A DNA stretch of 64,000 nt. Origin: Mobula hypostoma. Taxonomy: Eukaryota. The notes under the pieces were generated by a model that did not search any database, had not been told where the DNA came from, and saw only the letters and a list, made by a program, of their open reading frames with translations. Where the stretch lies: the NCBI RefSeq assembly GCF_963921235.1, contig NC_086108.1:38814001-38878000 (forward strand), given 5' to 3'. Shown here piece by piece: positions 17,001 through 63,357 of this stretch (positions within the stretch are counted from its first letter, which is position 1; the number at the start of each line of letters is the position of its first letter). The translations under genes were made by a program, and so were the position numbers.

Positions 17001-17420
17001 TCGCGACATCGAACCGAACATAAAAGCGATTGAACTCATCAGGGAGAGGCCGCAATGTTGGTGGCACCATAATGTTTGGCTTTGAAGTCTGCGATGATAT
17101 GCAGCCCTTGCCACAAGTCACGTGTGCTATTCATTGTGAATCATGACTCAATCTTCTCCCTATATTGTTGTTTTGTAGCCTTGATAGCTTTGCGCACGTC
17201 ATAGCTGGTTTCCTTGATCTCTAGTTGATATCCAGCGATGTAAACTCAATGTCGCGCTGTAAGTGCTGCTCGTACGAAAAAATTGATCCAGGGTTTCTGG
17301 TTCAGGAAGATCCTGACCGACTTCTGGGGGACAACATCGTTAATGCACTTCCAGACGAGCACGTGATTCCATCAGTGAACTTGGAGGAAACCTTTCCGAT
17401 GCGTGTTTTGTCTTCTCCGC
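14054..17420 (-). mobile_element. Rex1/Babar-like LINE, 5'-truncated, with nested CR1 (about 14183-14650) and Penelope-like (about 15708-16160) fragments
   Basis: KSAGPDGIPGRVLRMCAAQLAGVFTDIFNLSL, LDPLQF, YVRMLFLDCSSAFN, NTGAPQVCVLSPLLYSLYT, KFADDT, LLPSGKWYRSIK; (TTCAA)n tail at the left end. Confidence 0.9.
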
Positions 17421-17508
17421 CTGTAAAAGATTGCTATTTATAGTTCGAACATTTTATAAATTGCTTAAGCCTATTTAACTGCTTAAGAGATCAAGCAAAC
17501 CACGTATA
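17421..17508 (+). repeat. 88-bp direct repeat, right copy
   Basis: Aligns without gaps to 13966-14053; the pair abuts both ends of the Rex1-like LINE. Confidence 0.95.
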
Positions 17509-17667
17509 GCACCTATTGGGAAATTATAATATGAGTGGTACATAATGGAATATTTCAAAGTTGCCTTCTCCAATAATGTGTCCAATAAATATTTATTGTA
17601 TGATATGTGGACTGTAAGTGACAGGGCCTGTTTAATATCACTGAATCCCAGAAGATATCGAGAGCAG

Positions 17668-18006
17668 ATCCAGAGGGCGACTGCGGTGGCAAAAGTGTTA
17701 TGGGACAAGTATTTCATTTATTATGGACTTCCCAGGTGGATACATAGTGACCAGGGACAGGATTTCGAGAGCAGACTCATCCATGAGTTACTGGGCATGC
17801 TTGCAGTTCAGAAATCGAGGACCACGCCCTATCACCCGCAGAGTGAACCCCAGCCTGAGAGGTTTAAGTGGACCTTGCTAGACATGCTCGGGACCCTGGA
17901 GATCAGCAAGAAGAGCCGGTGGAGTCAACATATTGGGCATCTGGTTCACTGTTACAACTGTACACGAAATGAAGCTACTGGGTACTCGCCGTATTATCTG
18001 ATGTTT
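17668..18006 (+). mobile_element. Ty3/Gypsy integrase core fragment
   Basis: VAKVLWDKYFIYYGLPRWIHSDQGQDFESRLI...SRTTPYHPQSEPQPERFKWTLLDML...YNCTRNEATGYSPYYLMF; stop-free, ends at a CR1 tail. Confidence 0.9.
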
Positions 18007-18562
18007 TAGAACATAGAACATAGAATGGTACAGCACATTACAGGCCCTTGGGCCCACAATGTTGTGCCGACCCTTAAACCCTGCCGCCCATATAACCCCC
18101 CACCTTAAATTCCTTCATATACCTGTCTAGTAGTCTCTTAAACTTCACTAATGTATCTGCCTCTACCATTGACTCAGGCATTGCATTCCAGTCACTAACC
18201 ACTCTCTGAGTAAAAAACCTTCCTCTAATATCCCCCTTGAACTTCCCACCCCTTATCTTAAAGCCATGTCCTCTTGTATTGAGAAGTGGTGTCCTGGGGA
18301 AGAGGCGCTGGCTATCCACTCTATCTATTCCTCTTAATATCTTGTACACCTCTATCATGTCTCCTCTCATCCTCCTCCTCTCCAAAGAGTAAAGCCCTAG
18401 CTCCCTTAATCTCTGATCATAATGCATACTCTCTAAACCAGGCAGCATCCTGGTAAATCTCCTCTGTACCCTTTCTGATGCTTCCACATCCTTCCTATAG
18501 TGAGGTGACCAGAACTGGACACTACTCCAAGTGTGGCCTAACCAGAGTTTTATAGAGCTGCA

Positions 18563-32326: not shown

Positions 32327-32911
32327 GTTTATGTTTTGCTGCAATTCTTAACAAGTGCCTCTCCAGTCCTTGCAAAAACAATGCGACCTGCGAGGACCTT
32401 ATTGATGACTATATTTGCCACTGTCCAATGATACCTGTGGCATTCACAGGAAAGAACTGTGAGGAACTGTTCGATGTTTGTACAGCATATCCCTGTCAAC
32501 ACAATGCAACATGCAAGAGCATTTTGGGTACCGCTGACTTCTCTTGTGATTGCCCTCCCGATCGTACTGGGACCAGCTGCGAAAGTTACATTAACAAGTG
32601 TGCCAGCGCTCCCTGCTTGAATGGTGCCATCTGTTTGCACAATGCCACTGGCTATAGCTGTGTTTGCCCTCCAGGTTACACTGGCACTGACTGTGGAACC
32701 AGTGTGAATGAATGTGCACCAAATCCATGTGAAAACGGAGCTGTGTGTAAGGACAAGCTTAATGGATTTTCCTGCTTCTGTGTGCCTGGCTACCAGGGCA
32801 AACTGTGTGAGATTGAAGTCAATGAGTGTGCTTCAGAACCCTGCAGAAATGAATCTACCTGCATGAATGGAATTGACAAGTACACCTGCATCTGCCCACC
32901 TGGCTTGACAG
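32327..32911 (+). CDS. CRB1: Crumbs homolog coding exon (exon 2 equivalent), 5 EGF-like repeats
   Basis: Acceptor cttgcttccttag| and donor aca g|gtaaaa, phase 1/1, 585 nt. Reads LCFAAILNKCLSSPCKNNATC...CFCVPGYQGKLCEIEVNECASEPCRNESTC...YTCICPPGLT. The CFCVPGYQG motif and the size match my recollection of CRB1 exon 2. Confidence 0.9.
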
Positions 32912-36940: not shown

Positions 36941-37719
36941 TCTTTGGGCTTGTGCTTCAGGATGGGGATGGGGTGTGTGGATTGAAGGCAGGGATATCAA
37001 TGATGAAGAAATTAAATTCAGAGATGCCAAGGAGCTGGAACTAGAAAAGTGGATTCACTTCTGGAGAGTATTGAAATTTGGATGTTGGGTGAGATGAGTG
37101 TGCATTAGGCTCTGCAGCAATTTATGGGAAGTAATTATGACTTTGATTAATTATGTCAAATGGATGACAATAGTAACACTCAGTCGTACATCATATCCCA
37201 ATCTAAGTTTCCATTTACTGCCTATTGTCACATTTCATTGAACATTGGATTGGAGCTCATTGGTCTAGTGACCCACCTGGAATCTCTATCCATGGTCGCT
37301 CACACAGCTGCACACATCCAGATATAGGGGCCAATTCCTGCAATTGTTTACTTCCTAGAGAAGAGCAGGGTGATTTCAGTCACATCAGAACCTCTGATTG
37401 TGCCGTGAGGAGATCAAGCTCCGGAAACATGCCGGAAAGCTTTGAAAATCATCAAAGCCCCAATGTCAGCATTCAGAGACATGTAAAAGGTATCAGCTGA
37501 AGGCAAAAGCTAAAATTAGCAGTTTTTTTTTAAATGTTGTTTAATAAGAATATTTATATTTTTCTAACAATCAGAAGCAGAATTAAAAGCAAGCCATTTC
37601 TCTGAAAACAAAATGAAACTTGGCTTCTGATAACCAAAATCCTCACTGCCCCCCTTTGAAATCAAGAGGATCTTGGATCTCAGGTGATTCTGAACTGCTG
37701 CAGGATCTGCATTAAGTAT

Positions 37720-39249
37720 TGTAAAGCACTGGATTAATGTCGGGAAGGTAAAATGACAATTTAACTCAGTCTGAGCTTGTAGCGTGTGGAGTTCCTGTGC
37801 ATGGTAAACCGTGTAGGTCTGTTAATGTCTAATGTTTGTTGATAGCAGCTGGGTTCTTTCTTAGTGTCAGGTGCCATTAACATGAAGATGCCAGTTATGA
37901 CTAAATGTCTGTTGGTTATTTTGAGTGCAAGGTTGATGGATTCTTTTTTAGTGTCTGTCAAATTAGCTTGATTGATGTTTTTTTTTTGGATTTGGGCTTA
38001 TTCTTTATATGCTCAAAGCATTGGTAGCAAGTGGATGAGGAGTGACCAGTACAATGTCTAATTGCTTTATGAGGGTATGCTGAACACTGTGTCGATGGAC
38101 ACAGGATGTTTTTTAAAAAAAGACAGGCTGTGTTGAGACAAAGGTTCAAAGAGTTTGTCTGTCTTTGTGTATCTCACTGTACTTGTGAAACTCATATTTA
38201 TTGGGGTGCCCTTCCTGGTTTTGTTGGACTTCAACCACGAGCCAGAAACCATGATCGGTGCTTCTACCCGAGGGTCATTTCACAAGCGAGTCAGAATTCA
38301 GGTTTCCCCCAACAACCGCAACAATCAAGTGCTGACAAAGAATCGCGAGCCCTGAAATCTTTGTGACTTGCTACATAATATTTTGTGTGGTTTATTTCTG
38401 CTTTCTCTTTCGTGATAATAAATTGAGCTTGGGTTAGTTTGTTGTGCTTGTACGCTTACGTCACACTCCAGGAGTCACACTCACATCCCCATCTACATCA
38501 ACGGAACTGTAGTGGAGCGTGTATCGAGCTTCAAATTCCTTGGTGTCCACATTTCCGAGGATCTCACCTGGTCCCTGAACTCCTACATCCTGATCAAAAA
38601 GGTGCAACAGCGCCTTTATTTCCTGCAGAACATCAAGAAAGCTCACCTCTGTCCCAGGATACTGATGGACTTTTATCGCTGTACCATTGAGAGCATACTC
38701 ACCAACTGCATCTCAGTGTGGTATGGCAATTGTCCCGTATCGGACCGCAAAGCACTCCAGTGTGTGGTGAAAACTGCCCAGTGGATTATCGGCACCCAGT
38801 TGCCCACCATTGAGAACATCTACCATAAACGCTGCCTGAGCAGGGCGAAAAGCATTATCTGGGATGCATCTCACCCTAATCATGGACCTTTAACTCTCCT
38901 TCCATCCGGTAGGCGCTACAGGAGCCTCCGCTCCCGCACCAGCAGGCACAGGAAGAGCTTCTTCCCTGAGGCTGTGACACTGCTGAACCTCACATCACAG
39001 CGCTAAGCAGTATTACATCCGTATTGTACTGTCTCAGTACTTTTATATTTGTGTGCTGTAGCACTTTTTTTATTCGCAGTTATTTTGTAAATAACACTAT
39101 TCTTTGCATTTCTGGTCAGATGCTAAATGCATTTCATTGGCTTTGTATCTGTACTCGGCACAATGACAATAAAGTTGAATCTAATCTAATTACTACTCCA
39201 TATAATGGACATCCGAACTGTCTAGGTGCGATTAACCCGGCCTTTTGTG
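37720..39249 (+). repeat. 5' LTR of the ERV (interrupted by a Rex1-like LINE)
   Basis: Colinear with 48807-49549 (e.g. tggatgaggagtgacca.tacaatgtctaattg, gtgtcgatggacacaggatgt, gagccctgaaatcttt); AATAAA at about 38417; 3' boundary approximate. Confidence 0.88.
38471..39190 (+). mobile_element. Rex1-like LINE 3' fragment inserted in the 5' LTR
   Basis: Stop-free ORF 38512-39006 (ERVSSFKFLGVHISEDLTW, FYRCTIESILT, LLPSGRRYRSL); aataaagttgaatctaatctaat tail. Confidence 0.9.
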
Positions 39250-39257
39250 TAATCCTA

Positions 39258-39275
39258 TGGTGCCATGAGCAGGGT
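39258..39275 (+). promoter_or_regulatory. Primer-binding site, tRNA-His-like
   Basis: TGGTGCCATGAGCAGGGT matches the complement of the tRNA-His 3' end (TGGTGCCGTGACTCGGAT) at 13/18, just after the 5' LTR. Confidence 0.6.
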
Positions 39276-39287
39276 CCATCCAGCAAT

Positions 39288-40963
39288 ATGTGGAGGTGGA
39301 TAAGCAAGTCGAGCGATATCGTAACCAGGTCTCCGAATGGGTGGATAACTCGGAAGGTTTTGGATCTTTGGCTAATGACCTGGTCCTCCCAGATGTTGGG
39401 AGAATGCACTTGCTGAATTGGCTGACATAAGTTTCCGTATGTAGTATCACAATGCCTTAAGCATATAGACTTTCCCTCTAAGAGGGATATTTTATGACTG
39501 CATTGCGGCAGTGAGTTATTAAAACAACTGAATCCACTGAGGAAAATAAGCGACTGCAGCGTGAGTTGGCCTGTGAGTTCTCAGAACTCTATCTTAAGTG
39601 ACGCGCCGCGGGCAGAGCAGGGGCGCGCTAAATGTTCTGAGCCTAAACAAATTGCTGTGGCTGATGGGGTTATCTGGGAGATTGGATGAGATGGAAATAC
39701 TGTTATCGAGGCGTGTAAACGTTAAAGAAGGAACGCCGGAACGCTGATGAGCAAAATCAAACTTACTTCCCATAAGTTGTCCCTGGAAAAGCCCCATGGA
39801 AGCTATTTCATCCCTTTGTGGTATGGCAATACAATCTGCCATTTATAATAACAGTGACTTTAACGACCCTGAGGCTGCCCTTTTTCCCTCGGTATGTTCA
39901 TCCGATTGATGGAAGGGGGACCGTCATGGTGGTGAGGCATCTTGCTGGCTCTGTTAGGGCAAGCTGAAATGTAGATTAGGAACGGGTGCAGGTTAAGGCT
40001 GCTTTTAAATCTCGGCAGCAGCAAGGGCAATCTGAGCAAATAATAAATGGAACTAGGAATGCCTCAAAACAACTTGATGACTGCGCCTCAGCAGTTTGTA
40101 TCAGAGACCCTCTTCCCGATTTATAAGAAAGGGAATGTTTCTATTCCTGCTGAATGCAGGGCTGGATAAGGAAGAAAATGACGGTGTACCTTCCGGCATT
40201 CTTTGTGTGCTATACCGTGAGCACGTGATCCAGGTGGGTTGCATTCAATAACCGAAAGGGACTGGTCGCCCTTCTGGCCCCTACACAGGAATGTGATGTT
40301 AATCCCAAAAGAAGGATGTTTCCCAGTTACATCCGGACTTGGGACAACTGAACCCTGGATGGCAGCTTACTCAACCTGTCGTCTAGGGCTTTGGCTAGGG
40401 CGCTGGAACTGCCACTGTTGCTATGACAACTCCAAAGGGAGACACGAGGTGGTAGGTACCTATTACCCTTTGGTGGTCACAGGCGAGCGAGTGTAAATTC
40501 AGGGATATGGTGGATCGGTTAAGGATACTGTATGAACAAAGGTCCGTCTGCTGTTGGTGAGGGAACTCCTCGGTCTGTCCCCGTTCTCATCTCCCAGGTA
40601 CCTGACAACATTTTAGGAATTGGTTGGTTAACAGGAACCTCTATCATGGCACCCTTTGGCAAATTTACTTTTGGTATTCGGAAGGTGACCATTCTGGTTG
40701 GAAAGGCAAGGAGCGAACCTGTCTTTATACCCTTGCCATTGCAAATAGTAGTTGCCAAGCAATATTATCTCCTGGGAGGAAATCGGTGAAACAGCCGAGT
40801 CCCTTTTAAACCTAGGGGTTCTTCCCATTATAATGGCCCTATTTGGCTATTTTGGAAACCTGATGGTTTATTGCATATAATCCTTGATTATTGTCAGTTA
40901 AATCAGTTTGCCCGTGAAATCAGTTCGCCCCTCTGCTGCTCACAGCTGTTTCAGCCACTATGA
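39288..40963 (+). pseudogene. ERV gag, protease and RT N-terminus (decayed)
   Basis: CPWKSPMEAISSLCGMAIQSAIY...DPE and LLNAGLDKEENDGVPSGIL (class III gag-like); VPVLISQVPDNILGIGWL...ILVGKARSEPVFIPLPLQIVVAKQYYLLGG. Confidence 0.8.
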
Positions 40964-41793
40964 CCCAGACGGAGACGGAGTTAAGAAGGCTCTAAACGGC
41001 GACTCCTTTGTTTGCATCTTCGGAATCAGCTCGACTTCCATCTTTAATATCTTTATTTTTCCCTTTCAGGGTTCTTTTGAAGTCCCTGACCTGAAGTTAC
41101 ACACTGACTTCGGTTCTTTGCAGGAATGGGATCCGTCCTCGGGGTTTCAGGACTGACCAAGGATGCCAAGGATTCGGCCTGAGAGTCCGGCTCGTATTTG
41201 GAAGCCTAAGATCTCAGGACTCTGGAGACAGGCGGATCGAGGGTCGGTGTCATGGCACAAGACCCGTGTGTCGTCGGGGAAGTTGTAAAATCTACTGCTG
41301 TGTGCCCAAAGACCTGAGATCTTTGTGATCTTCAGGCACAGAGGACTCGAAAAAAGCGACGTAACGGACTTCTAACATCATAAACCAGCAAGTTGTTTGT
41401 TATGTCTCCCCGCTCGTTGGGAAATGGAGACGTCTCCCTCTCCCTTATTAGGGAGAGAGAGAACCTGTGGTACGTCGAATGCTGGGTGAAACGCAAAGTC
41501 TTTGGGGTAACTGCAAGTCTGTGTCTTTGCTATTGCTTTGCTCACTCTTGACTGCTCGGTGGTGGTGCTGATGCTTTTTCTGCGGTGGAGGGAGGGGGAT
41601 CGTTGCTCGCTGCTGCTTACGCGCAAGAGGGGGGAGCTGGGGTTGACTTTGGGGTTCTCACGTTTAACTGTCATTCATTCTTTGGGGCACTTCCCTGTTT
41701 TCGTGGAGGTTTGCGAAGTACAAACTGTAAAAGCATTTCAGGCTGTATATTGTATACATTTCTCTGACATTAAATTGCACCTTTGAACCTTTG
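40964..41793 (+). mobile_element. About 830-bp non-coding retroposon inserted in ERV RT
   Basis: Starts near gagttaagaaggctctaaacggcgactcc, ends ctctgacattaaattgcacctttgaacctttga; homologous to 42918-43715 in the opposite orientation. Confidence 0.85.
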
Positions 41794-42917
41794 ATTAAGG
41801 ACCTTTCTCGGAGACTGACGGTTATTGTGCTGTTACTGATTTGGCTAATGCCTTCTTCTCCATCCCTGTTGCTGAACAGTCCCAAGATCAGTTTGCATTC
41901 ACATGGAATGGCCTTTAGTACACCTTTACACAGCTTCCCCAAGTATATGTTCATAGTCCTACTATTTGCCATAGTGTGGTGGCATGGGATATGTGTGAAC
42001 GTGTCCTATTCCCCAGCATTAAAGTAGCTCACTGTATAGATGATCGTGGAAGTCCTCTGAGGAGGAGGTTTCTGAAGGCCTTAATACTTTGACTGAGCAC
42101 ATGCGATTGAGGAGATGAGAAATTAACCCCGATAAAATACAGGGCCCAGCTATGACTATGCATTTTCTGGGAATACAATGGATTAAGGGAGATAGGATAA
42201 GGTCAGAAATGAGTTCCTAGACATAGCACCCCCTATGGCAAAACAAGAAGCCCAATACTTTGTTTGCCTTTTGGGATACTGGCAGCGACACATACTCCGT
42301 TTGGCTATGCGCTTCCAACTGTGTGTGCTGTGACTAGAAAGAAGTTTACTTCCGTATGGGGCCTCAAGCAGCAATCAGCATTTGAAGCTGCAGGGGAGGC
42401 CATCACAGCAGCCTTACCCCGTGTCTTCATTGAGAGTGCTTACCATATGATCTGCAAGAAGATGTGGCTGTCTGGAGCCTCTGACAGAGGTATGGAGGAA
42501 AGAACATACCTCTCAGTTTCTGATCCCAGAAACTTTCTGATGCTGCCACCAGATACATTGCACTTCAGAAAAAAAAATTCTTGCCTCCTACTGGGCTTTG
42601 ATAGAAACTGAAACAAAGATGGGAGATTCTCTCGTCCCTCTCAGCTCTGACCTTCCCTTTATGGGATGGGTCCTCTCTGACACCCTCATCCATAAGGTAG
42701 GGTGTGCAGAGCAGAGTTCGTTTCTCAAGTGGAAGTGGTATATTTCTGAATGAGCATCAAAGGGACTGGACAGAATTCATAAGATACATGAACTGGTTGC
42801 TGAGCCCCACGGGCAGCACCACCCGTGCCTGAAGCTGCCTTGGTCGATGCCCAGCCCGTTGGGTGGGGTGTTCCCTTTGATCTTCTGACTGCCGCTCAGC
42901 AGCAGCACACCTGGTTC
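41794..42917 (+). pseudogene. ERV reverse transcriptase and tether (decayed)
   Basis: YCAVTDLANAFFSIPVAEQSQDQFAFTWNGL*YTFTQLPQVYVHSPTICH...HCIDD (42030-42044)...FLGIQW...APPMAKQEAQYFVCLLGYWQRHI...LPFMGWVLSD..HKVGCAEQSSFLKWKWYI. Confidence 0.92.
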
Positions 42918-43715
42918 AAAGATCCAACTTAATGTCAGAGAAATGTATACAATATACATCCTGAAATGCTTTTTCTTTGCAAACATCCACAAAAACGGAG
43001 GAGTGCCCCAAAGAATGAACGACAGTTAAACGTAAGAGCCACAAAGTCCCCCACCCCGAGCTCCCCTCCCTCTCATAAATAAGTGGCAACAAGCAACAAT
43101 CCCTCCTCCTCCCAACAGCAAATAAAAGCATAAGCACCCACCACCAAGCACTCAAGCATGAGCAAAGCAATAGCAAAGACACAGACTTGCAGTTACCCCA
43201 AGGACTTCACATTTCACCCAGCATTTGACATACCACAGGCTCTCTCTCTCCCTAATAAGGGAGAAAGAGATGTCTCCATTTTCACAGCGATCGGGGAAAT
43301 ATAAAACACAACTCACTGGTTTACGATGTTGAAAGTCCGTTATGTCGCTTCTTCCGAGTTCTGTTCCCAAAGATCTCGGGTCTTTGGGCACACAGCAGTA
43401 GATTTTTCAACTCCCCCGATGATACACAGGTCTCCTGCCATGACACCGACCCTCTATCCACCTGTCTCCTGAGCTCCGAGATCTTAGGCTTCCAAATCCG
43501 AGCTGGCCTCTCAGGCCGAATCCTTGGCGTGCCGGACAATGGCCAGACCTGAAACCCTGAGAACGGGTCCCGCAAAGAACCGAAGTCTGCATGTAACTCC
43601 AGGTCAGGGTCTTCAAAAGAACCTCGAAAGGGAAAAATAAAGATATTAAAGATGGAAATAGAGTTGTTTCCAAAGATACAAGCAAAGGAGTTGCTGTTTA
43701 GCGCCATCTTAACTT
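42918..43715 (-). mobile_element. Second copy of the non-coding retroposon, inserted in the WFTD motif of RNase H
   Basis: Minus strand starts aagttaagatggcgctaaacagcaactcc; colinear with 40964-41793. Confidence 0.85.
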
Positions 43716-44023
43716 GGGTGTTGGCGCATGGCCAAGTGGTTAAGGTGTTCATCGAAGTGATTTGAAGGTCGCTAGTTTGAGCCTTGGCTGAGGCAGCGTG
43801 TGTGTCCTTGAGCAAGGCACTTAACCATACATTGCTTTGTGACGATACCAGTGCCAAGCTGTATGGGTCCTAATGCCCTTCCCTTGGACAACATCGGTGG
43901 CGTGGAGAGGGGAGACTTGAAGCATAGGCAACTGCCGGTCTTCTATACAACCTTGCCCAGGCCTGCGCCCTGGAAACCTTCCAAGGCGCAAGTCCATGGT
44001 GTCATGAGACTAATGGATGCCTA
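43716..44023 (+). mobile_element. tRNA-derived SINE
   Basis: A box TGGCCAAGTGG, degenerate B box, central GTGTCCTTGAGCAAGGCACTTAACC; taactt duplicated at both ends. Confidence 0.85.
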
Positions 44024-44031
44024 TAACTTTG

Positions 44032-44347
44032 CTTCACCGATGACTCTGCGACATGGAAGAATGGTCGTCGCTGTGGAAGTTTGCTGCTTTTCACCCTCTC
44101 ACCCAGCCATTTCTGAAGAAGGAAGGCCCTGAGGGGTCGAGTCAATAGGCAGAGCTTGTAGCAGTGCAGACTGTCTTTATGTGTGAAACCGAAGACATCC
44201 ATATTAATACTGAATCCTGAGCTGTTGCTCATGGACTTGCTGTCAGGTTGCCCCGGTGGAACCAACAGCCTTATACTATCATGGGGCATCTTTTATGGGT
44301 AGTGGAGTTGTGGAGGGACATTTGGAAGTGATCATCGCATGCTACCA
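44032..44347 (+). pseudogene. ERV RNase H (decayed)
   Basis: FTDDSA...WKFAAFHP...GSSQ*AELVAV...IHINTES*AVAHGLAV..PRW...LWRDIW. Confidence 0.88.
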
Positions 44348-47305
44348 GCAACACACACAAAATGCTGGAGGAAGTCAGCAGGCCAGGCAGCATCTATGGA
44401 AAAGAGTAGTCAATGTTTCGGGCCAAGACCCTTCATCAGGACTGGAGAAAGAAGACAGGAGTCAGAGCAAGAAGTTCGGGGGGGTTGGAGGAAGAACCAC
44501 AAGGTGATAGGTGAAACGGGGGTGGGGGTGGGGGGGCAGTGAAGTAAAGAGCTGGGAAGTCGATTGGTGAAAGAGATACAGGCCTGGAGAAGGGGGATCT
44601 GATAGGAGAGGACAGAAGGCCATGGAAGAAAGGGAAGGGGGAAGAGCACCTGAGGGAGGTGATGGGAAGGTAACGTGAGAGAGAGAAGTGGGAATGGGGA
44701 ATGATGGGAGGTGGGGGGTGGCCATGAGAAATCAATGTTCATGCCATCAGGTTGGAGGTTACCAAAATGGAATACCAGGAGTTGGGTGTTGCTCCTTCAG
44801 CCTGAGTGTGGCCTCATCAAGACAGTAGAGAAGGCCATAGACTGATATGTTGGAATGGGAATGGTAAGTGGAATTAAGTGGATGGCCAGTGGGAGATCCC
44901 ACTTTTTCTGGTGGATGGAGTGTAGGTACTCAGTGAAATGGTCTCCAAATCTACGTTGGGTCTCACCAATATACAAGAGACCACAATGGGAGCACTGGAT
45001 ACAGTAGATGACCCCAACAGTCTCACAGGTGATGTGACACCTCAACGGGAAACACTGTTTGGGACCCTGAATGGTAGTGAGGGAGGAGGTGTAGGGGCAG
45101 GTGCAGCACTTGTTCAGCTTGCAAGGATAAGTGCCAGGAGGGAGATCATTCAGGAGGGACGAATGGACAAGGGAGTCCCATAGGGAGCAATCTCTGCAGA
45201 AAGCAGAAAGTGGGAGGAGGGAAAGATATGCTTGGTGGATGGCAGAAGTTACAGAGGATTATATGCTGGATGCAGAGGCTGGTGAGGATGAGGAACTCTA
45301 TTCCTGGGGGAGTGGCTGGAGAATGGGGTGAGGGCAGACGTGCGCAAAATGGAAGTGATGTAGTTGAGGGGAGCATTGATGGTGGAGGAAGGGAAGCCCC
45401 TTTCTTTGAAAAAGGAGGACATCTCCTTAGTTCTAGAATGAAAAGCTTCATCCTGAGAGCAGATGCGACAGAGACGGAGGAACTGAGGGAAGAGGATGGC
45501 ATTTTTACAAGTAACAGGGTGGGAAGGGGTATAGTTCATTTTAATACCACTTCCTATTCCCATTCTGACATGCCAGTCCATGGCCTCCTGTACTGTTGCA
45601 ATGAGATCACACTCATGTTAGAGGAGCAACACCTTATACTCCGTCTGGGCAGCCTCCAACCTGATGGCATGAACATCGATTTCTCAACCTTCCACTAATG
45701 CACCCCCCTCACCGTTCCCCATTCCCATTTTCCTTGCCCATCACCTCCCTCTGGTGCTCCCCCCTTCCCTTTCTTTCTTCCATGGCCTTCTGTCCTATCA
45801 GATTCCCCTTTCTCCAGTCCTTTATCTCTTTCACCGGTTGACTTTCCAGCTCTTTACTTCACCCTTCCTCCCCTCCCAGTTTCACCTATCACCTACTACC
45901 TTGTATTTCTTCCTCCCCTCCCACCAGCTTTTTACTCTGACATCTCATCTGTTTTTCTCCAGTTCAGATGAAAGGTATCAGCCTGAAATGTCGACTGCAC
46001 TCTTTTCCATAGATGCCACCTGGCTGCTGAATTCTTCCAGCATTTTATGTGCATTGCCTGTATAACCCAGATTAATTAAACCCAAAGATGTAATGTTAGA
46101 GGGTTCCACCTGCGGAGGGATTAAAACGAGGCTTACCGATTTTTTTAAAAAAGAGAATTTTGGAAAAAAAACACTCTGCAAGAGAGGTGTGGTTGATGCA
46201 GGCACAGATAAGGAGAGAAACGAAGCACCAGTTAGAAGCTGAAGACAGGAACTGTTAAGAGTGGAATTAGTAGTGAGTATCTTTACCCTACTAACTTGAA
46301 AACCTCAAGATGAAACCCCTGGGGGAGGAGACAATAGCGATAAATATTTATTGAAGCTATGGCTATAAAATGCAGCAGTTATAATGAGAGAGTATCGGCA
46401 GAGACGAGTGTCCAAAATCCCTACCATGTAGTTGGGAATTAGTTCTGCAAAATCATACCAACGGACTTGGTCAAGTTTTTGTACAAGTTTGTGAACTGAC
46501 TTTCCATGGACGATGAACTATTTCATCCAACGAAACAAGATGGCGAGCCACCCACAATCGAGAAACCAGCGCAGGAACGAAATGTGTAATGACGCAAAGG
46601 ATTTAATATGGTTTGATGTTTAAGTTTATTTTCATTAGAAGAATCCGAATTTGATTTTCTGGAAGAACTGATTATTTGTGCAAAGACTTTGATAAGTTAC
46701 AGAATGAGATTTACTTTGTTTAAAAGTAGTGATGTCAGAGAACTATCGTGAAAGGAGTAAAACTGTGTCTTCATAAATTTTGAATTTGAATTTAAACTTG
46801 TAGCTATACTGCCTGGAACTGAAACTGAAGTTAACTAATACTTAAGAATAGGAATTATAGTTGGTTTCCTAACTAACTAGGGATAAGTAAAAAGGAAAGT
46901 TTAGTCTGTAAACTTTTAAATAGGGAGTAATACCAGATCTAATTAGGTAGAGAGATTAGAGTAATAAAGGAATCTCATTGATTCTAATTAAAAAGGAATC
47001 TGTTTTGGGTTGATATCTAAGACTTGGACCCTAAACAGAATGTTGGAATTTTGAATTGTTCTTGCTCACGTAAATATTTCGTACGTATTGTTCTTTTTCT
47101 TATAAACAAATCTTACCTCCAGAAGTGTGTGGTTTCTGTTCACTGTCTCCTTCCGATACCTAGAATCTTCTGATGGCCTACTAGCACCTAGTGTAATTTG
47201 ATTTTCTCAAAGAGTGCGGTGACTAGTCACACACGATAAGACTGGTGCTACACAGGTGTTGTACTTGGATTTCCAGCATCTGTAGATCTCCTCTTGTTTG
47301 TGATT
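44348..47305 (-). mobile_element. Neptune-type Penelope-like element with inverted terminal repeat, inserted in ERV pol
   Basis: Minus strand RT C-terminus (SHPVTCKNAILFPQFLRLCRICSQD) and GIY-YIG (VIYCIQCSHCGLLYIGETQRRFGDHF) to about 45535. Inverted copy of the 3' end at 45536-46058, finishing at 47265-47305. 11-bp TSD gcatg(c/t)tacca (44337-44347, 47306-47316). Confidence 0.9.
46059..47264. mobile_element. About 1.2-kb solo-LTR-like insertion inside the Penelope terminal repeat
   Basis: Splits the repeat (gtgcattgcc | ttggatttccagcatct); termini tgtataac...gttgtac are imperfect inverted repeats; no ORF. Confidence 0.55.
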
Positions 47306-47316
47306 GCATGTTACCA

Positions 47317-48270
47317 TTACAGCTTACCATGGCATCACCTAATTGAAAGATAATTTGCTGATGACAAGAATTAACATTCCTGACAAACTCGCTTGTGTTG
47401 GCACGGTGAAATTTAGCCCTCAGCCTCAAATACCAATATTGCCACTTGCTCGGTGGGCTCATGAGTCTTCTGGTCACTTGGGGGTACAAGGTACCTTGGA
47501 GTTGTCTAGGCAGCAGGGATTATTCCTTCTCACAGATATAACTCAGACAGCAGTGGGGAACAAATTAAGGACCAATAGCTTTTAAAATGACTCTTGGCTG
47601 CCATTCACCATGGGCTTGCTCCTGCTCAGACTTGGCAAGTGGATTAATTCGATCTCCTTCCTTTACAGAAGCGATACCAGTACCTGCTCACTATGGTGGA
47701 CAGTTATCCTGTTCTTTTGATAGCAAACCCTACTTTAAAGCTAATCAGGATGGTACCCTTAGGGGATTAGAAACCTTATTTCTGTATACAGCGATACCCT
47801 CGAAATTCAATCCGACACTGGTTGGCACTTTTTGCATTCTAGGGTACAAGAGGGAACTGTCTCTAATGGTCTTCCATATCCCCTATTATCCTCAGGCCAG
47901 TGATCTGATTGAATGAATGAATGGCCTATCAAAACGTCAAATTCGTTTACTTACTTCTGTCCATACCTTATCTGGATGGTTACCTGTGCTTCGTATAACT
48001 TGAATAACTGCTGTTTGAAAGGAGGCACTCCCTTTTTGTGAGTAATAGAACAATCTTTCCCTTTTGTTTCCGATGGCACAACTGAACGTACTGATAAAGA
48101 GCCAAGTCAGTTCTGCAAGGAGAGGGGGTATAGTATGGGTGACATACCCCTCTTCCCCTCCAGTGGAGGGTGCGATTATAGCTGATGGATGGGTTATAGC
48201 CATACTGGGTGATGGTATGAGGACAGACCTGTCTTGTGTGTGTGGATAAAGGTAACTTGACAAATGAACA
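47317..48270 (+). pseudogene. ERV integrase (decayed)
   Basis: LARWAHESSGHLGVQGTLELSRQQGL, APAQTWQVD*F..LP...YQYLLTMVDSY, EIQSDTGWHF, FHIPYYPQASDLIE*MNGLSKRQI. Confidence 0.9.
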
Positions 48271-48313
48271 CATTTATGTCTCGCCGGTTTTATTTGTAAA
48301 GGTTCCTGCCAGA

Positions 48314-48842
48314 ATGTTGCTTCGTTTTGTTTTAATGCTTGTCTTGTGTTTTGTTGGATGATGGACTTCTGTTCAGACCTGTCAGACTACTGAGAACCTT
48401 GCGATCGGTGAAAATTATATTATTGTTTCGGGAAAAATGTACACTTGTGATATATACTAACTGGGACCTGTAAGAGTGAGGGAATGTTGTAAACCTAGAG
48501 AGACTGGCCTGATATGACTTTTCCTGTGAAACAAGGGAAGTGCCAAATTGATTGTAATTTGAGTTTTCATCACTGATCAGAATGTGGTGTTTATAAATCC
48601 TACTTGTTCTGTTCAAATTGCCCCTTAGGGACAAGGGCATACATTTTAATGTTGAGATTAATCATTGGATATGTATAATTTTTCATATTTTAATAATCAT
48701 TAGAATATTAGTTTTAATCATCCAAGGGATGGTAATATGTATTCTTCATTTTAAGCAGAAGTGTTCTGTGTTTCTTTCACCTACCAGACATTTGAGGGGT
48801 AGATTGTGTAAAAGATCAGATGACTGTCTGGAGGGTAAATGA
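48314..48842 (+). pseudogene. Decayed small membrane-protein ORF at the env position
   Basis: MLLRFVLMLVLCFVG* signal-like start, Cys-containing middle, hydrophobic WICIIFHILIIIRILVLIIQGMVICILHF; stops and at least one frameshift. Confidence 0.45.
48794..48806 (+). promoter_or_regulatory. Polypurine tract
   Basis: GAGGGGTAGATTG immediately before the 3' LTR, similar to the ERV-L/MaLR-type AGGGGTGGA tract. Confidence 0.7.
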
Positions 48843-49549
48843 CAACTTAATTCTTTCTGAACTTGCGGCATATAGAGTGTCTGTACAAGGTTAACAATGT
48901 AGGTCTGTTAATGTCTTATGTTTGTTAATAGCAGGTGGTCACTGAGAGTTGATGGATTCTTTCTTAGTGTCTGTTAAATTTGCTTGATGGATTCTTTTTT
49001 ATGTAATATTAAATGTTCTTTTGTAAGTGAAAGGAATGTTATGTCCAAAATGTTGGGAGACCAATGGATGAGGAGTGACCATTACAATGTCTAATTGAGT
49101 GATGATGATATGCTGAATACAGTGTCGATGGACACAGGATGTGTATGAAAAAAGACAGGCTGTGTTGAAACAAAAAATTAAAAAGCTTGACTGTCTCTGT
49201 ACATGTCTCTCTGTGCTTGTGAAATTTGTATTTATTGATGTGCTCTCCCTGGTTTCATTGGACTTGTCAATGGCCAGAAATTGCGATTGGTGCCTAGGAT
49301 CCAGGGATGGTTTCATGAATGAGTCGGAATTTGAGTTCTGAACAGTCGCAATCAAGTGGTGACGAAGCAGCATGAGCCCTGAAATCTTTGCGGAAATCTT
49401 TTTGACTTGCTACATAGTATTTTGTGTAGTTTACATGTGCTTTCTATTTTATGATAAATTAGATTTAATTTACTTTGTTGTGCTTGTATGCTTATAATCA
49501 CATCTTCTGGGCACTTGAAACTTGGATCTGATCAACTCAGCCCATTACA
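48807..49549 (+). repeat. 3' LTR of the ERV
   Basis: TGTAA...TTACA; homologous to 37720-39249. Confidence 0.88.
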
Positions 49550-50728
49550 GGATTTGAGAGAGAAGTACCCCTTTGTAAATACTGGGGAATCTCTTAGCAA
49601 GGTTGAACTCTACATGGAATTCAGTAATGGAGTGAGCCAACATGTTTGGTCTTGTATATCTATCAGTAAAGCTTAGGCTTACTCGTTTCAAGTTCTAAAG
49701 TGAGATATGGCATGGGAACAGGCTGTTCAGCCCATTGAAACTGTATCAAACGTCAGCCATCCACTTCTGCTACTCCTGCGTAAATTCCATTTTTAATCAT
49801 CTGGCATTCCCCAGATTCCATGATCCTACCACTTAGCTGCACACTGGAGACAATACTGTTTTTGGATGTGTGAAGATATTGGAACACTGGGAGGAGAACC
49901 ACGCAGCCACAGGGAGAATGTCTGGGTTGTGAAAGGTTGAGATGAGGCTGCACTGTTGGGGATCAAATATTTGGATTTGTTAATTTATCAGTATAATGTT
50001 AAATGTTTTCATTGAAAATTAAATTGGTCAATGGATATATGTATACCTGATATCGTTTCCAAAACCAACAAGCAAAGAATGCCCTGATGCTTCCTATTAC
50101 ACTGGTGCCAAGTCAGACTGCTAGAGCCTTTGTTTTCAAAGGCACCACATTGGCATGGCATAAACAAAAAAAGACAGAAAATGCTGTAAAAAAAAACACA
50201 GCTGTTAAAGGAATCAATTAACACTCCAGACTGAAGATAGATATATCTGCTAGAAGATCTCATCCTGAAATGTCAACACCCTTTCATGTCAACAAGACTG
50301 ACTTGTTGAGGTTTCCTAGCATTTTTCATGTTCCTTTCTGATTTGTAGCATCTGCACTTTTGAATTCTTAATTACCTTTGACACATTCAGGATAGTTGAA
50401 GATTCACTGCTGTCTATGGGCTTTAAAGCTTGCAGTTCTGTTTAAAAGTGTTAATATTAGCTAGCAAACTTTAGCCCCAGTTGTTGAAATTTCCATTGGA
50501 GGGAGTCACCGCTATAAGTCATCGTGTCTGCTTGATTGACAGAAGAATGACTTCCTCCTGCAGTTTTCCTTCCTTTCTCAGATAAACAGAAAACTGGTCT
50601 TCAGCAAAGTATGGGTTTCATATGGCAACTCTCAGGTAATCTGTTAACCTTGTAGCTTCCAAGTGTGGCATTATGCTAAACTAATTGCACAGAGGATGCT
50701 CAATTGATGATTCTTCCGCAATCTATGA

Positions 50729-50950
<222 letters not shown>

Positions 50951-58236: not shown

Positions 58237-58376
58237 GTATAGCTGTGACTGTGTGAACACTGGATATACGGGTTTGCACTGTGACTTCTACGTCCCCAGT
58301 TGTCTTTCACAACCCTGTCTCAACAGCGCCACCTGCCAGGACACTGATGGAAATTACACTTGTCACTGCTGGCCAG
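58237..58376 (+). CDS. CRB1: Crumbs homolog coding exon (exon 4 equivalent)
   Basis: ttattgcag| ... cca g|gtttgt; 140 nt, phase 2/1. [55 protein letters not shown] is CRB1-like. Confidence 0.92.
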
Positions 58377-58659
58377 GTTTGTGTTTTTATATTTTGTATA
58401 AACGACTATTGCTATCTTGTTCAAAGTATCAACACAATGTTATTAAACAAAATCAGCATTTGATTTTAATTTATCATATTGAGAAATTTATATTTTTTAA
58501 TATATTCAGTGCTTTGATTGCTCTAAGTTCTGATTAAAAATATCTGCGCTGTTTTCTGTACTGATGCACGTGTTTTTTCTCACCATATACATAGTTGTGC
58601 AGTCAAACCATACGCAGAACATATCTGCTTGTAAGAAGAAGCTGCTAGTCTTGTGAATG

Positions 58660-61622: not shown

Positions 61623-62552
61623 GCAAACAATTACGTTTATTTTTAAAGATGTATGTGGCCAAGTTCTTTGACCGGTAAATTATAAATGCATGGAATGTCA
61701 AGAAAGATTCCGAAAAATTCAGAGTCCCAATATGTAACCAGTTCCTAGAAAGTGGAGCTCTATCAAGCATTAAACCAAAATTACACATTTCTAGAAAGCT
61801 GAAGCCTGGACAGTGAGGACCTGCTCAAGTAAAGCTAAGTATGCAAAATTATCCCTTTACATGGTTAGCTGAATGCCACAGAACCAAGAAGAAAAGACAT
61901 TTTTGTACAAGTTCTTTGATTTGTTCTTCAACTCTGTCATTACTAGTAGATCATAATGTTCATGGGTAGCAGATACTGTGCACAATTGTCAGTGACAGCT
62001 GCAAACAACCCTGGACATTACCTGCGCTGTCAGTACCTGATTCAGATTGTCTGCATTTCTTGGAGGCGATTGAGCCATTCTGAGCTTGAGTGTGGAGAGA
62101 GTGAGTGAAAAGACAAATGCAAGGAGAGGGCTGGTGAAAGAAAAGACTCTGCTTAAAGTAAAGGGGAACAAACAAAGTGTAAAGAAGAAAGGTAAAAGGA
62201 GAATGGATGATGAATGAATGAGAAAAAGGATCAATAAAGAGAATTGAGAGAGAAAGGAGTGAAAAGACAAGTAAGAAGGGGCAGGTGGAAGAGGTGAGAG
62301 CAGACATGATTTTTTTCCCCTCTGCTTCATTTACAATTTTCTAATTCAACAATCACAGGATTAAAGAATGGTAGAATTTAGTTAAGGTGTTTTTTGTCCT
62401 TTTCCCCTACAATCCTTACCCAGCTCCATCCCCACCTCCAAATAACCCTCATTTCATGATTCTCAGGTGGAGAGTATCGATTAATTTTGTTTTGTGGTCC
62501 AGACTGTAAAAGTGAATGTAACCATTATATGCATTTTGTGATTTTAATTCAG

Positions 62553-62735
62553 GTTTTATGGGGGCACAATGTGAGATCGATATCCCTGAGTGCTTCAGTA
62601 ATCCTTGTTTACATGGGGCAGAGTGTGTTGAACTCTCCTGGCGAAGCATGAATGGAAACACCACTGAATCGCCTGTAGTCTTTAGCTATGAGCGTGCTGC
62701 TGGCTACATCTGTAAATGTCAGCATGGATTTACAG
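62553..62735 (+). CDS. CRB1: Crumbs homolog coding exon (exon 5 equivalent), EGF repeat with Crumbs-specific long loop
   Basis: ttttaattcag| ... aca g|gtaccc; 183 nt, phase 1/1. FMGAQCEIDIPECFSNPCLHGAECVELSWRSMNGNTTESPVVFSYERAAGYICKCQHGFT; ECVELS...FSY..A.GY.C.CQ.GFTG favours CRB1 over CRB2. Confidence 0.92.
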
Positions 62736-63357
62736 GTACCCTTCAAAGTTATACGTTGCATTTTGTTTCCTGAGGAAGAACATTGCAGAAATCATCAGAG
62801 ATTTTAGTTTACTTTGGTAGTAAGCAAATACATAGAGACAAAACGAGGCTAAGGATTTTGCCCTTTCTTTCATCTGGGGACTACAATCAGTTTAATTATT
62901 GACATTGTAGTAAGTGACATCATTTGGTGAAACACTTCAATAATAATGCACATGGAAACTGATATTAATGAACTAGTTACTATACATGGAAACTGAATTC
63001 TAATTTATAAACATTATCAAAGGAAATAGATGTCCTTAACATTGTACGAGTTGTCTGTTAAAGGTGAAATAATTTTCCATGGAATTAATAATTTTTCAAA
63101 ATTAGAATGGCTTAATTCATTAACAAATGGAAACTCACTGGCTTAAGGATTTTTAAAATCAATTTTTAATGTAGCATTCCTGTTGCATCCTCGTTGGGAA
63201 TTTTACTCTGGAAATTGGGGTAGGCAGAACAAAAATTCCAACAAAACAGAGGAGATGAATTTCTTCTTGAGCACTAAAAGACTCCAAAATATAAGCAAAT
63301 TTATTCCACCCTGAGCTGGGTAAATCTTCAACACCACAACACCAGATTATTTTGAGT

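Follow-up and report, generated by a model that had tools for sequence, protein, structure and literature searches.

Which retrovirus left its remains in intron 2 of the CRB1 gene of a ray, and by what route did its family multiply? In the present study, we analysed a stretch of 64,000 nucleotides from Mobula hypostoma (NCBI RefSeq assembly GCF_963921235.1, contig NC_086108.1, positions 38,814,001 to 38,878,000 of the forward strand), referred to here as the window. An initial annotation, made from the letters alone, had described an ERV-L-like (class III) endogenous retrovirus (ERV) at positions 37720 to 49549 of the window, broken by stops, frameshifts and later insertions. Our overall reading, in which we have good confidence, is that this is a dead ERV3 provirus with a serine primer site, without dUTPase and with a short frame in the env position, and that it is one copy of an old family which likely spread inside germ cells after a likely deletion of most of a SnRV-type env. 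What is new is this ray family, as class III members from elasmobranchs were already in print.

Structure of the provirus

The order claimed at the outset, from the 5' long terminal repeat (LTR) over primer-binding site, gag, protease, reverse transcriptase (RT), tether, RNase H, integrase and polypurine tract to the 3' LTR, was recovered by tblastn with class III Pol proteins, by LTR alignment and in the paralogues. The start at 37720 had to be corrected to 37708 by the target-site duplication and by the starts of the paralogue matches; the 5' LTR begins there a few bases shorter than in the paralogues. The parts of the provirus, in positions of the window, are as follows.

37703-37707, plus strand: left target-site duplication of 5 bp, with four of five bases as in 49550-49554
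37708-49549, plus strand: decayed class III (ERV3) provirus, recognised by LTRs, primer-binding site, pol order, polypurine tract and target-site duplication
37708-38458, plus strand: main part of the 5' LTR, aligned to the 3' LTR; paralogue matches start at 37708-37712
39191-39254 (end approximate), plus strand: remainder of the 5' LTR, which resembles 49495-49549 and precedes the primer-binding site
39258-39275, plus strand: primer-binding site for tRNA-Ser(CGA), pairing with this tRNA of the same genome at 14 of 18 bases
39300-40480 (ends approximate), plus strand: gag, broken by stops, frameshifts and deletions; matches the Fv1-like Gag P0162 of Hemitrygon
40481-40913, plus strand: protease region and start of RT, broken; tblastn 38% to P0160, 78 bits
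41792-42918, plus strand: RT and connection (tether), with stops and frameshifts; from tblastn, Pfam and motifs
44030-44347, plus strand: RNase H, broken; Pfam RNase_H E 0.018, tblastn 36-41%
47303-48250, plus strand: end of RNase H and integrase with its C-terminal domain, broken; from tblastn and Pfam
48314-48790, plus strand: short env-position frame, broken, with hydrophobic leader, Cys-rich stretch, membrane anchor and short tail; from the shared-stop test, hydropathy and anchor matches
48794-48799, plus strand: polypurine tract, shortened at the LTR junction; precedes the 3' LTR
48800-49549, plus strand: 3' LTR, ending in ACA, with its first bases missing
49550-49554, plus strand: right target-site duplication of 5 bp, with four of five bases as in 37703-37707

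The two LTRs, about 11 kb apart, were aligned with 72% identity over 560 columns and 79% over 121 columns (E 1e-83), and the LTRs of the paralogues start with TG and end with ACA. The target-site duplication was found in paralogues with five of five bases in L106, four in L044 and one in L024, and by eye with five of five in L021. The primer-binding site of paralogue L022 fits tRNA-Ser(CGA) at all 18 bases; of the 43 stretches compared from paralogues, 10 have at least 12 fitting bases.

The tblastn matches to class III Pol proteins cover 40550-40912 (protease), 41808-42923 (RT and connection), 44047-44358 (RNase H) and 47382-47997 (integrase), and fainter Pol similarity continues to about 48250. 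Pfam searches of single frames agreed in position, though at low significance (RVT_1 E 0.0011, RNase_H E 0.018, Integrase_H2C2 E 0.12). The six Pol motifs on which the initial annotation had relied are present in the order it gave, at 41838, 42119, 42589, 42727, 42864 and 47448, in changing frames. The RT catalytic motif is altered in the window copy, and YIDD was read in 6 of 44 copies. Gag P0162 of Hemitrygon was matched by the window and 18 paralogues with a best E of 3.5e-13; the window contributed the piece 40126-40227 (E 2.8e-4). Pfam gave nothing significant on the gag frames. The gag-pro part of the window copy is about 0.5 kb shorter than in six paralogues, where the spacing is 2.1-2.3 kb.

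The 5-bp duplication together with a Gag without zinc knuckle is the ERV3 pattern (Chong et al. 2014, PMC4299795, Table 1). A CCHC pattern, counted at any place and with positions unchecked, was found in 2 of 44 family stretches versus 8 of 13 control loci, and none was present in the Gag-Pol of Hemitrygon. The Gag of the family would thus lack the zinc knuckle as in ERV3, and decay could hide one. In addition, tblastn with the mouse dUTPase region and a motif search, positive in the mouse protein, found no dUTPase behind the integrase in any of the 44 family loci. The GPF/Y pattern was seen at unchecked places in 4 of the 44 family stretches and in none of the class I controls.

Spread of the family and origin of its env-position frame

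When the ray's own genome was searched with RT-connection DNA, 142 candidates were obtained; the 40 of them that were scored yielded 47 matches with 71-83% identity, most at 71-76%. Scoring was confined to the 40 best candidates in each genome search. Internal copies of the family number at least 40, and all are old; the 3' LTR alone returned 930 first-look candidates. By the Kimura two-parameter (K2P) distance, the LTR pair of the window differs by 0.282 over 679 sites and those of five paralogues by 0.18-0.27; LTR dating is limited to these five paralogue pairs, and self-BLAST missed several pairs. The 877 pairwise distances among 44 copies have a median of 0.276 (range 0.17-0.37). Furthermore, RT change by codon position was 0.194/0.219/0.197, without third-position excess, and the copy tree is star-like. 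Since the copies are as distant from each other as the LTRs of one copy and no third-position excess was seen, the family appears to have arisen in one burst from few templates, followed by neutral decay.

The age of the insertion was examined through contigs of other organisms. Contigs of organism B bridge both provirus junctions (11 differences in 942 bases and 49 in 2,332). At the 5' junction, a bridging contig is also present in organism E, which differs by about 5.6% over six listed pieces (109 in about 1,945 bases); its contig at the 3' junction includes just 27 bases of the LTR, below the 31 bases required for bridging. Organisms C and D have pieces 1-9% different from the window, and a junction was bridged by none of the contigs listed for them. 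At constant rates, the insertion would therefore have some four to five times the age of the split at 5.6% difference. A rate of 2.2e-10 has been assumed for the elephant shark beside a mammalian rate of 2.2e-9 (Han 2015, PMC4422223), and a per-generation rate is published in PMC10587355. At the LTR divergence these two rates give about 640 and about 64 million years, and neither of them is calibrated for rays. The first value is older than the jawed vertebrates. All that can be said is that the provirus is tens to a few hundred million years old. The expectation that a batoid member would bear on the age and host range of the lineage therefore stands modestly for age, as an old insertion present in several species, and fails for a large extension of the host range, as elasmobranch members had been published.

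About 550 bases separate the end of pol (~48250) from the polypurine tract, and these bases recur in the paralogues. When the post-integrase region was searched, 40 scored of 123 candidates gave 42 matches and none was interrupted by an env-sized gap. Gamma-type immunosuppressive-domain or CX6CC motifs were found in none of the 44 family loci. The short env form is the form of the family in all copies scored.

We propose that an ERV3-clade retrovirus entered the germ line of a ray ancestor, that an internal deletion likely removed most of a SnRV-type env, and that this shortened derivative served as the template of the one burst. Each copy would have been reverse-transcribed intracellularly from a 5' LTR transcript with tRNA-Ser(CGA) as primer and would have integrated with a 5-bp stagger. 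The copies would then have decayed without selection, and the window copy would later have taken four repeat insertions; it has no likely present function and is predicted to be removed with the spliced intron.

Two considerations tell against intracellular spread. It is read from structure, with which helper complementation remains compatible, and env-bearing members of the family may have been missed among candidates beyond the best 40. Reinfection, or packaging by an env-bearing helper, would have had partners at hand, as the genome also contains a sister family from this clade whose env is gamma-type, with CWVC and CX6CC (L091, L098), and env-bearing SnRV-like elements are abundant (151 matches). 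However, the same short env-position region was seen in every copy scored, the copy tree is star-like without coding signal, and the sister copies with gamma-type env show less decay and are so probably later, with terminal branches of about 0.05-0.17 versus 0.2-0.5. We regard spread by reinfection or helper as fairly unlikely, and intracellular retrotransposition is kept as the preferred mode.

The origin of the env-position frame was approached by a shared-stop test on 27 copies set on one anchor. The leader frame had no stop common to half the copies until codon 98, with 10 common stops in each of the other two frames of that region. Downstream, a second frame ran without common stop through the 59 codons to the polypurine tract and contains a strongly hydrophobic stretch and a short tail, and the U3 control had common stops in all three frames. 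The leader is signal-peptide-like, and the frame has about ten cysteines. Leader and anchor stretches are mutually out of frame in 18 of 22 copies, and the break is therefore likely older than the burst. The anchor was compared with 633 sequences, among them about 120 Crumbs, Notch and other EGF-repeat proteins; the best match was the SnRV-type Env of L115 (E 0.0028), the next having E 1.9. Against the C-termini of the SnRV-type Env of L156 and L158 it reached E 7e-5 and 1.5e-4. In addition, forward SnRV-type env matched 5 of 28 regions and reversed env none of the 28. From these comparisons we consider it probable that the frame is a deleted SnRV-type env.

There are also observations that count against this assignment. 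It depends on a hydrophobic stretch of 35-40 residues, where composition can mislead. Leader and Cys-rich part had no match in Pfam, in PDB (none below E 1) or in the SnRV-type envs compared, and the leader profile, run against 1.84 billion representatives, found only three leucine-rich-repeat proteins, taken as spurious. The anchor profile gave unrelated membrane helices (best E 0.038), and Pfam gave nothing significant on both parts of the frame. The codon-position test lacks coding signal even in RT and cannot judge this frame. An origin of the Cys-rich stretch from TNF-receptor or three-finger proteins, considered from cysteine spacing, found no support in these searches.

As the main rival to a deleted SnRV-type env, the frame could be a gene, accessory or captured from the host, that encodes a small membrane protein rich in cysteine. 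The combination of leader, some ten cysteines, anchor and short tail would indeed suit a type I membrane protein of small size, no env matches the N-terminal part, and gene capture by ERVs is documented (PMC4299795). Against this, the frame occupies the env position and ends at the polypurine tract, and its best anchor matches are ends of SnRV-type Env and not host proteins. No host family was matched in Pfam, PDB or the representatives, the two open stretches lie in different frames in most copies, as stated above, and a third-position excess is lacking. Capture of a host gene is in our judgement unlikely. If the SnRV-type origin is true, the env swapping of class III elements, known from frogs and HERV-S, gains a further donor, and amplification after the loss of env is found outside mammals.

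In the lungfish Protopterus annectens, gene model P0006 combines an ERV3-type Pol with a stretch weakly like SnRV-type Env (E 0.009). It is a possible second case of such pairing, going by the protein sequence.

Placement in ERV3 and known relatives

An unjoined RT piece of 83 residues scored 86-96 bits against ERV3-type Pol of medaka, lizard, pheasant and lungfish. Against PDB it scored 34 bits with foamy RT, 28 with HERV-K, 26 with MLV and 16 with HIV, and Ty3 was not among the 60 matches listed. Its identity was 53-61% to five ERV3 proteins versus 40-44% to the SnRV-like L115, L117 and L119. Among the best 120 of 279 relatives in the profile search, the hosts were Hemitrygon, Narcine, killifish, medaka, gobies, toadfish, bichir and lungfish, and also caecilians, frogs, newts, turtles, birds and mammals.

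The initial annotation had asked for an RT phylogeny. In trees of RT, connection and integrase, the window fell in the ERV-L/ERV-S group in every bootstrap replicate (69/69, 39/39 and 48/48 in three reference frames). Besides the window, this group takes in the mouse cluster along with sequences from birds, amphibians and fishes, and SnRV-like and class I elements stand apart. We used a 127-row RT tree, leaving out rows with fewer than 190 or 120 readable residues, and 46-row RT-connection-integrase trees with 6 of the 44 family copies, and these agreed with each other; the last two bootstrap runs took mouse and galliform references, to rule out a pull toward the Hemitrygon reference. The outgroups were elements of the same genome, namely class I L110-L114 and L123 (Pfam TLV_coat or MLVIN_C in three) and SnRV-like L115-L122, L125, L127 and L128, the latter by motif as in ca_mi_ERV1 and le_er_ERV4 (PMC6001957). 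P0031 was taken as MuERV-L, a label that we derived from the Mus proteins in its cluster and the dUTPase behind its integrase. A clade of batoid elements only (window, Hemitrygon, Narcine) appeared in 66/69, 38/39 and 45/48 replicates. The mouse cluster joined this clade in 10/69, 3/39 and 3/48 and the window family itself in 1/69. No supported sister group of the batoid clade emerged.

Several features of these trees weaken the placement. The outgroups are labelled by motif or Pfam only, without labelled exogenous SnRV, foamy, HERV-S or Gypsy sequences, and a scan of IMG/VR for named retroviral references gave 187 pattern hits with none confirmed. The supports are FastTree bootstraps on reference-projected rows, the IQ-TREE tree carries no supports, and the batoid clade has a Shimodaira-Hasegawa support of only 0.75 on RT alone. 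Taken together, the trees, the Gag, the serine primer and the lack of dUTPase nevertheless make the element, on sequence grounds, an ERV3 that is ERV-S-like in primer and dUTPase state and belongs to neither the mammalian ERV-L nor the mammalian ERV-S lineage. The name ERV-L-like is thus apt at the level of class III and inapt in the strict sense, given the serine primer site, the lack of dUTPase and the lack of a clade with mouse ERV-L.

A late cross-class jump to rays from a tetrapod ERV-L or ERV-S may be suspected, as host switches are reported to be frequent and none of the clades has retroviruses of cartilaginous fishes at its base (Xu et al. 2018, PMC6001957), and RT-region identity is 47% to the mouse cluster, near the 50% to Hemitrygon. 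We hold it to be very unlikely. All sampled batoid elements lie in one clade with several deep sub-lineages, the mouse cluster joins the family or the clade in only the few replicates given above, and the insertion is several times older than the split at 5.6% difference. An ancient jump in either direction is conceivable, as the backbone of the tree is poorly resolved. That the element is a Gypsy retrotransposon or a SnRV-like, ERV4, foamy or class I provirus can hardly be entertained: the nearest solved structures are foamy RTs, the anchor is SnRV-like, and the 5-bp duplication without dUTPase would also fit ERV4, but bit scores and trees are contrary, connection and RNase H are separate domains, gag is Fv1-like, and ERV4, without labelled member among the references, is opposed by the group shared with the mouse ERV-L cluster. 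As far as the references allow, a Pol of Gypsy, foamy, class I or SnRV-like type is ruled out; the ERV-L/ERV-S-type Pol, as opposed to Gypsy, epsilon or foamy, agrees with what had been read from the motifs.

The best-scoring Pol relatives are gene models of Hemitrygon akajei (XP_072893362.1 and its cluster) and Narcine bancroftii (XP_069787449.1) from the same batoid clade. Like the window family they have no dUTPase and a Fv1-like Gag, and some of the Hemitrygon models are named 'Friend virus susceptibility protein 1-like'; unlike it they belong to a far less decayed sub-lineage with about 50% RT identity and are annotated as host genes. In the literature searched, we found no description of them as ERVs. 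NCBI holds predicted ERV3-group proteins from Hemitrygon, Narcine, teleosts, bichir and lungfish, and relatives occur in amphibians. The models P0158-P0169 (Hemitrygon akajei) and P0222-P0234 (Narcine bancroftii), several of them named Fv1-like, are ERV3 gag or gag-pol.

In the genome of Mobula hypostoma, the same clade includes a less decayed sister family, L090-L099 (for example G000:C68:16364000-16373999 and G000:C2:200966100-200976099). Its gamma-type env with CWVC and CX6CC is present in a long form in L091 and L098 and in an internally deleted form in L090, L097 and L099, and L099 has an LTR pair with 96% identity. Env loss appears to have occurred twice in the batoid ERV3 clade. A third ERV3 sub-lineage of the genome (L100, L101, L102, L107, L109) groups with the Hemitrygon protein P0060.

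Of the published elements, Rh_ty_ERV3 of the whale shark shares with the family an elasmobranch host, a shark versus a ray; by eye, the first 400 residues of its Gag include the same C-terminal block as window 40126-40227 and the Hemitrygon Gag. In the S2 tree of Xu et al. (2018, PMC6001957), judged by tip order only, Rh_ty_ERV3 and the killifish No_fu_ERV1 stand directly beside HERVL and Murine_ERVL. That study screened elephant shark, whale shark and little skate and found that clade Huo, including class III ERVs, infects all major vertebrate lineages; its little skate entries with visible starts look class I or SnRV-like by motif. Later, 2,843 clade III RT loci were counted, undivided, in six chondrichthyan genomes (2024, PMC11089739). 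For the elephant shark, the accessible text of two papers lists only SnRV-like and epsilon-like lineages (PMC4977317, PMC4422223), and that of PMC12287698, with 13 cartilaginous fishes, does not mention the window family. In the literature searched, outside which were most subscription journals, Dfam and Repbase, we found neither this ray family nor the pairing of an ERV3 pol with a SnRV-type env described.

With ERV-L (MuERV-L, HERV-L) the family shares the Pol group, the YIDD-type RT motif, a Fv1-like Gag without zinc knuckle, the 5-bp duplication and a likely spread without working env; Fv1 derives from a murine ERV-L gag (PMC8922424). ERV-L differs by its leucine primer (PMC524511) and a dUTPase after integrase, whereas the family has a serine primer, no dUTPase, an env-position remnant and a separate clade. 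The ERV-S lineage (HERV-S/HERV18) and XtERV-S share with it the serine primer, TGT/ACA ends and a class III gag-pol joined to an env of foreign origin, and ERVS is likewise without dUTPase (PMC5753468). Their envs, however, are class I (gamma) whereas the anchor of our remnant is SnRV-like, and XtERV-S has a dUTPase (Yedavalli et al. 2021, PMC8278194). An ERV-L-like Pol with an acquired env is also known from frogs (PMC8278194, bioRxiv 2024.07.05.601823). The galliform and mole proteins, taken as ERV-S-like, and the Xenopus sequences were not sister to the window family or, for the first two, to the batoid clade in our trees. For ERV-SA.a-Ppe, the last part of the name could stand for the sawfish Pristis pectinata, our unconfirmed guess at its host. 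In this element of an anamniote, a class III Pol is paired with a gamma-type Env (Chen et al., bioRxiv 10.1101/2021.11.23.469661), as in the sister family L091/L098; its Pol is called SnRV-related in the text of that paper.

It is only tentatively suggested, as a joint claim of which not every part need hold, that rays have their own ancient ERV3 clade, resident for well over 100 million years, a third branch beside ERV-L and ERV-S with at least two envelope swaps, which repeated the ERV-L route independently of mammals. The present family would then come from a recombinant of ERV3 gag-pol and SnRV-type env that lost env before its intragenomic burst, and the sister family would have taken a gamma-type env. 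If so, the CRB1 insertion is a dated marker for the minimum age of the clade. As it stands, the ERV-L/ERV-S group gains a well-bounded multi-copy ray family, and since the orthologous insertion lies in a conserved gene, a minimum age can be read from one intron in any ray genome. The known host range is little changed, and the window copy itself is ordinary decayed DNA.

Later insertions, host gene and other elements

The initial annotation had allowed for about 5.6 kb of insertions and a remainder of about 6.2 kb; removal of 5,676 bp left 6,166 bp. Four blocks are involved, and all of them are bridged contiguously by 39 paralogues. They are listed below together with the exons on either side of the provirus.

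32329-32911, plus strand: host CRB1 exon 2, with EGF repeats, ahead of the provirus; 94% identical to CRB1 of Hypanus sabinus
38459-39190, plus strand: 3' end of a long interspersed nuclear element (LINE), carrying a short tandem tail and dividing the 5' LTR in two; absent from 39 paralogues, Pfam PF09004 E 9e-14
40914-41791, plus strand: high-copy repeat, absent from paralogues, with an inverted twin at 42913-43714
42919-44029, no strand assigned: inverted twin of the 40914-41791 repeat and a second repeat at about 43706-44025; absent from paralogues
44348-47302, no strand assigned: Penelope-like pieces in inverted arrangement, enclosing a probable solo LTR; GIY-YIG E 0.0027, inverted arms
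50741-50950 (ends approximate), plus strand: host CRB1 exon 3, 1.2 kb downstream of the provirus; tblastn 89%, E 4e-32

The LINE insert, which we take to be L2/Rex1-like, has a summed contig depth of about a million-fold. The repeat at 40914-41791 has 9,934 first-look candidates in the genome with 81-86% identity. It was inserted twice, 1.1 kb apart and in opposite orientation, so that a long inverted repeat surrounds RT, and its arms (40967-41791 and 42913-43714) are 85-93% complementary. The second repeat at about 43706-44025 is putatively SINE-like (a short interspersed element), a label given by reading its sequence. A 1.2-kb unit at about 46059-47262 has fixed inverted ends and 1,246 first-look candidates, mostly of 81-88% identity, and is probably a solo LTR of another family nested in the Penelope-like pieces. 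All three inserted units checked for copy number were high-copy repeats. The two searched by DNA are 81-88% identical to their own families, while the provirus is mostly 71-76% identical to its own; the inserts are therefore younger than the provirus.

The proposed location in a CRB1 intron and the batoid host were both verified. The provirus lies in intron 2 in sense orientation, between the two exons listed, and the upstream exon is 94% identical to that of the stingray Hypanus sabinus, 81% to Narcine and 74% to the whale shark, as would suit a stingray-like, likely myliobatiform host. Other CRB1 exons were found at about 17249-17424, 58238-58381 and 62552-62740, all on the plus strand. Directly behind exon 1, intron 1 contains a separate integrase fragment at 17530-18009, probably of a Gypsy element by its motifs.

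In the genome, SnRV-like proviruses (L115-L122, L125, L127, L128, L136-L159) are abundant and form at least two Pol lineages; the 151 matches mentioned above were to one env piece. In the RT tree, the owl proteins P0037 (Tyto alba) and P0053 (Athene cunicularia) are nested among frog ERV3, a position that suggests a frog-to-owl jump, as judged from the protein sequences. Finally, locus L050 (G000:C9:59297300-59307299) has a direct duplication of about 3.1 kb with 92% identity, overlapping a copy of the family.

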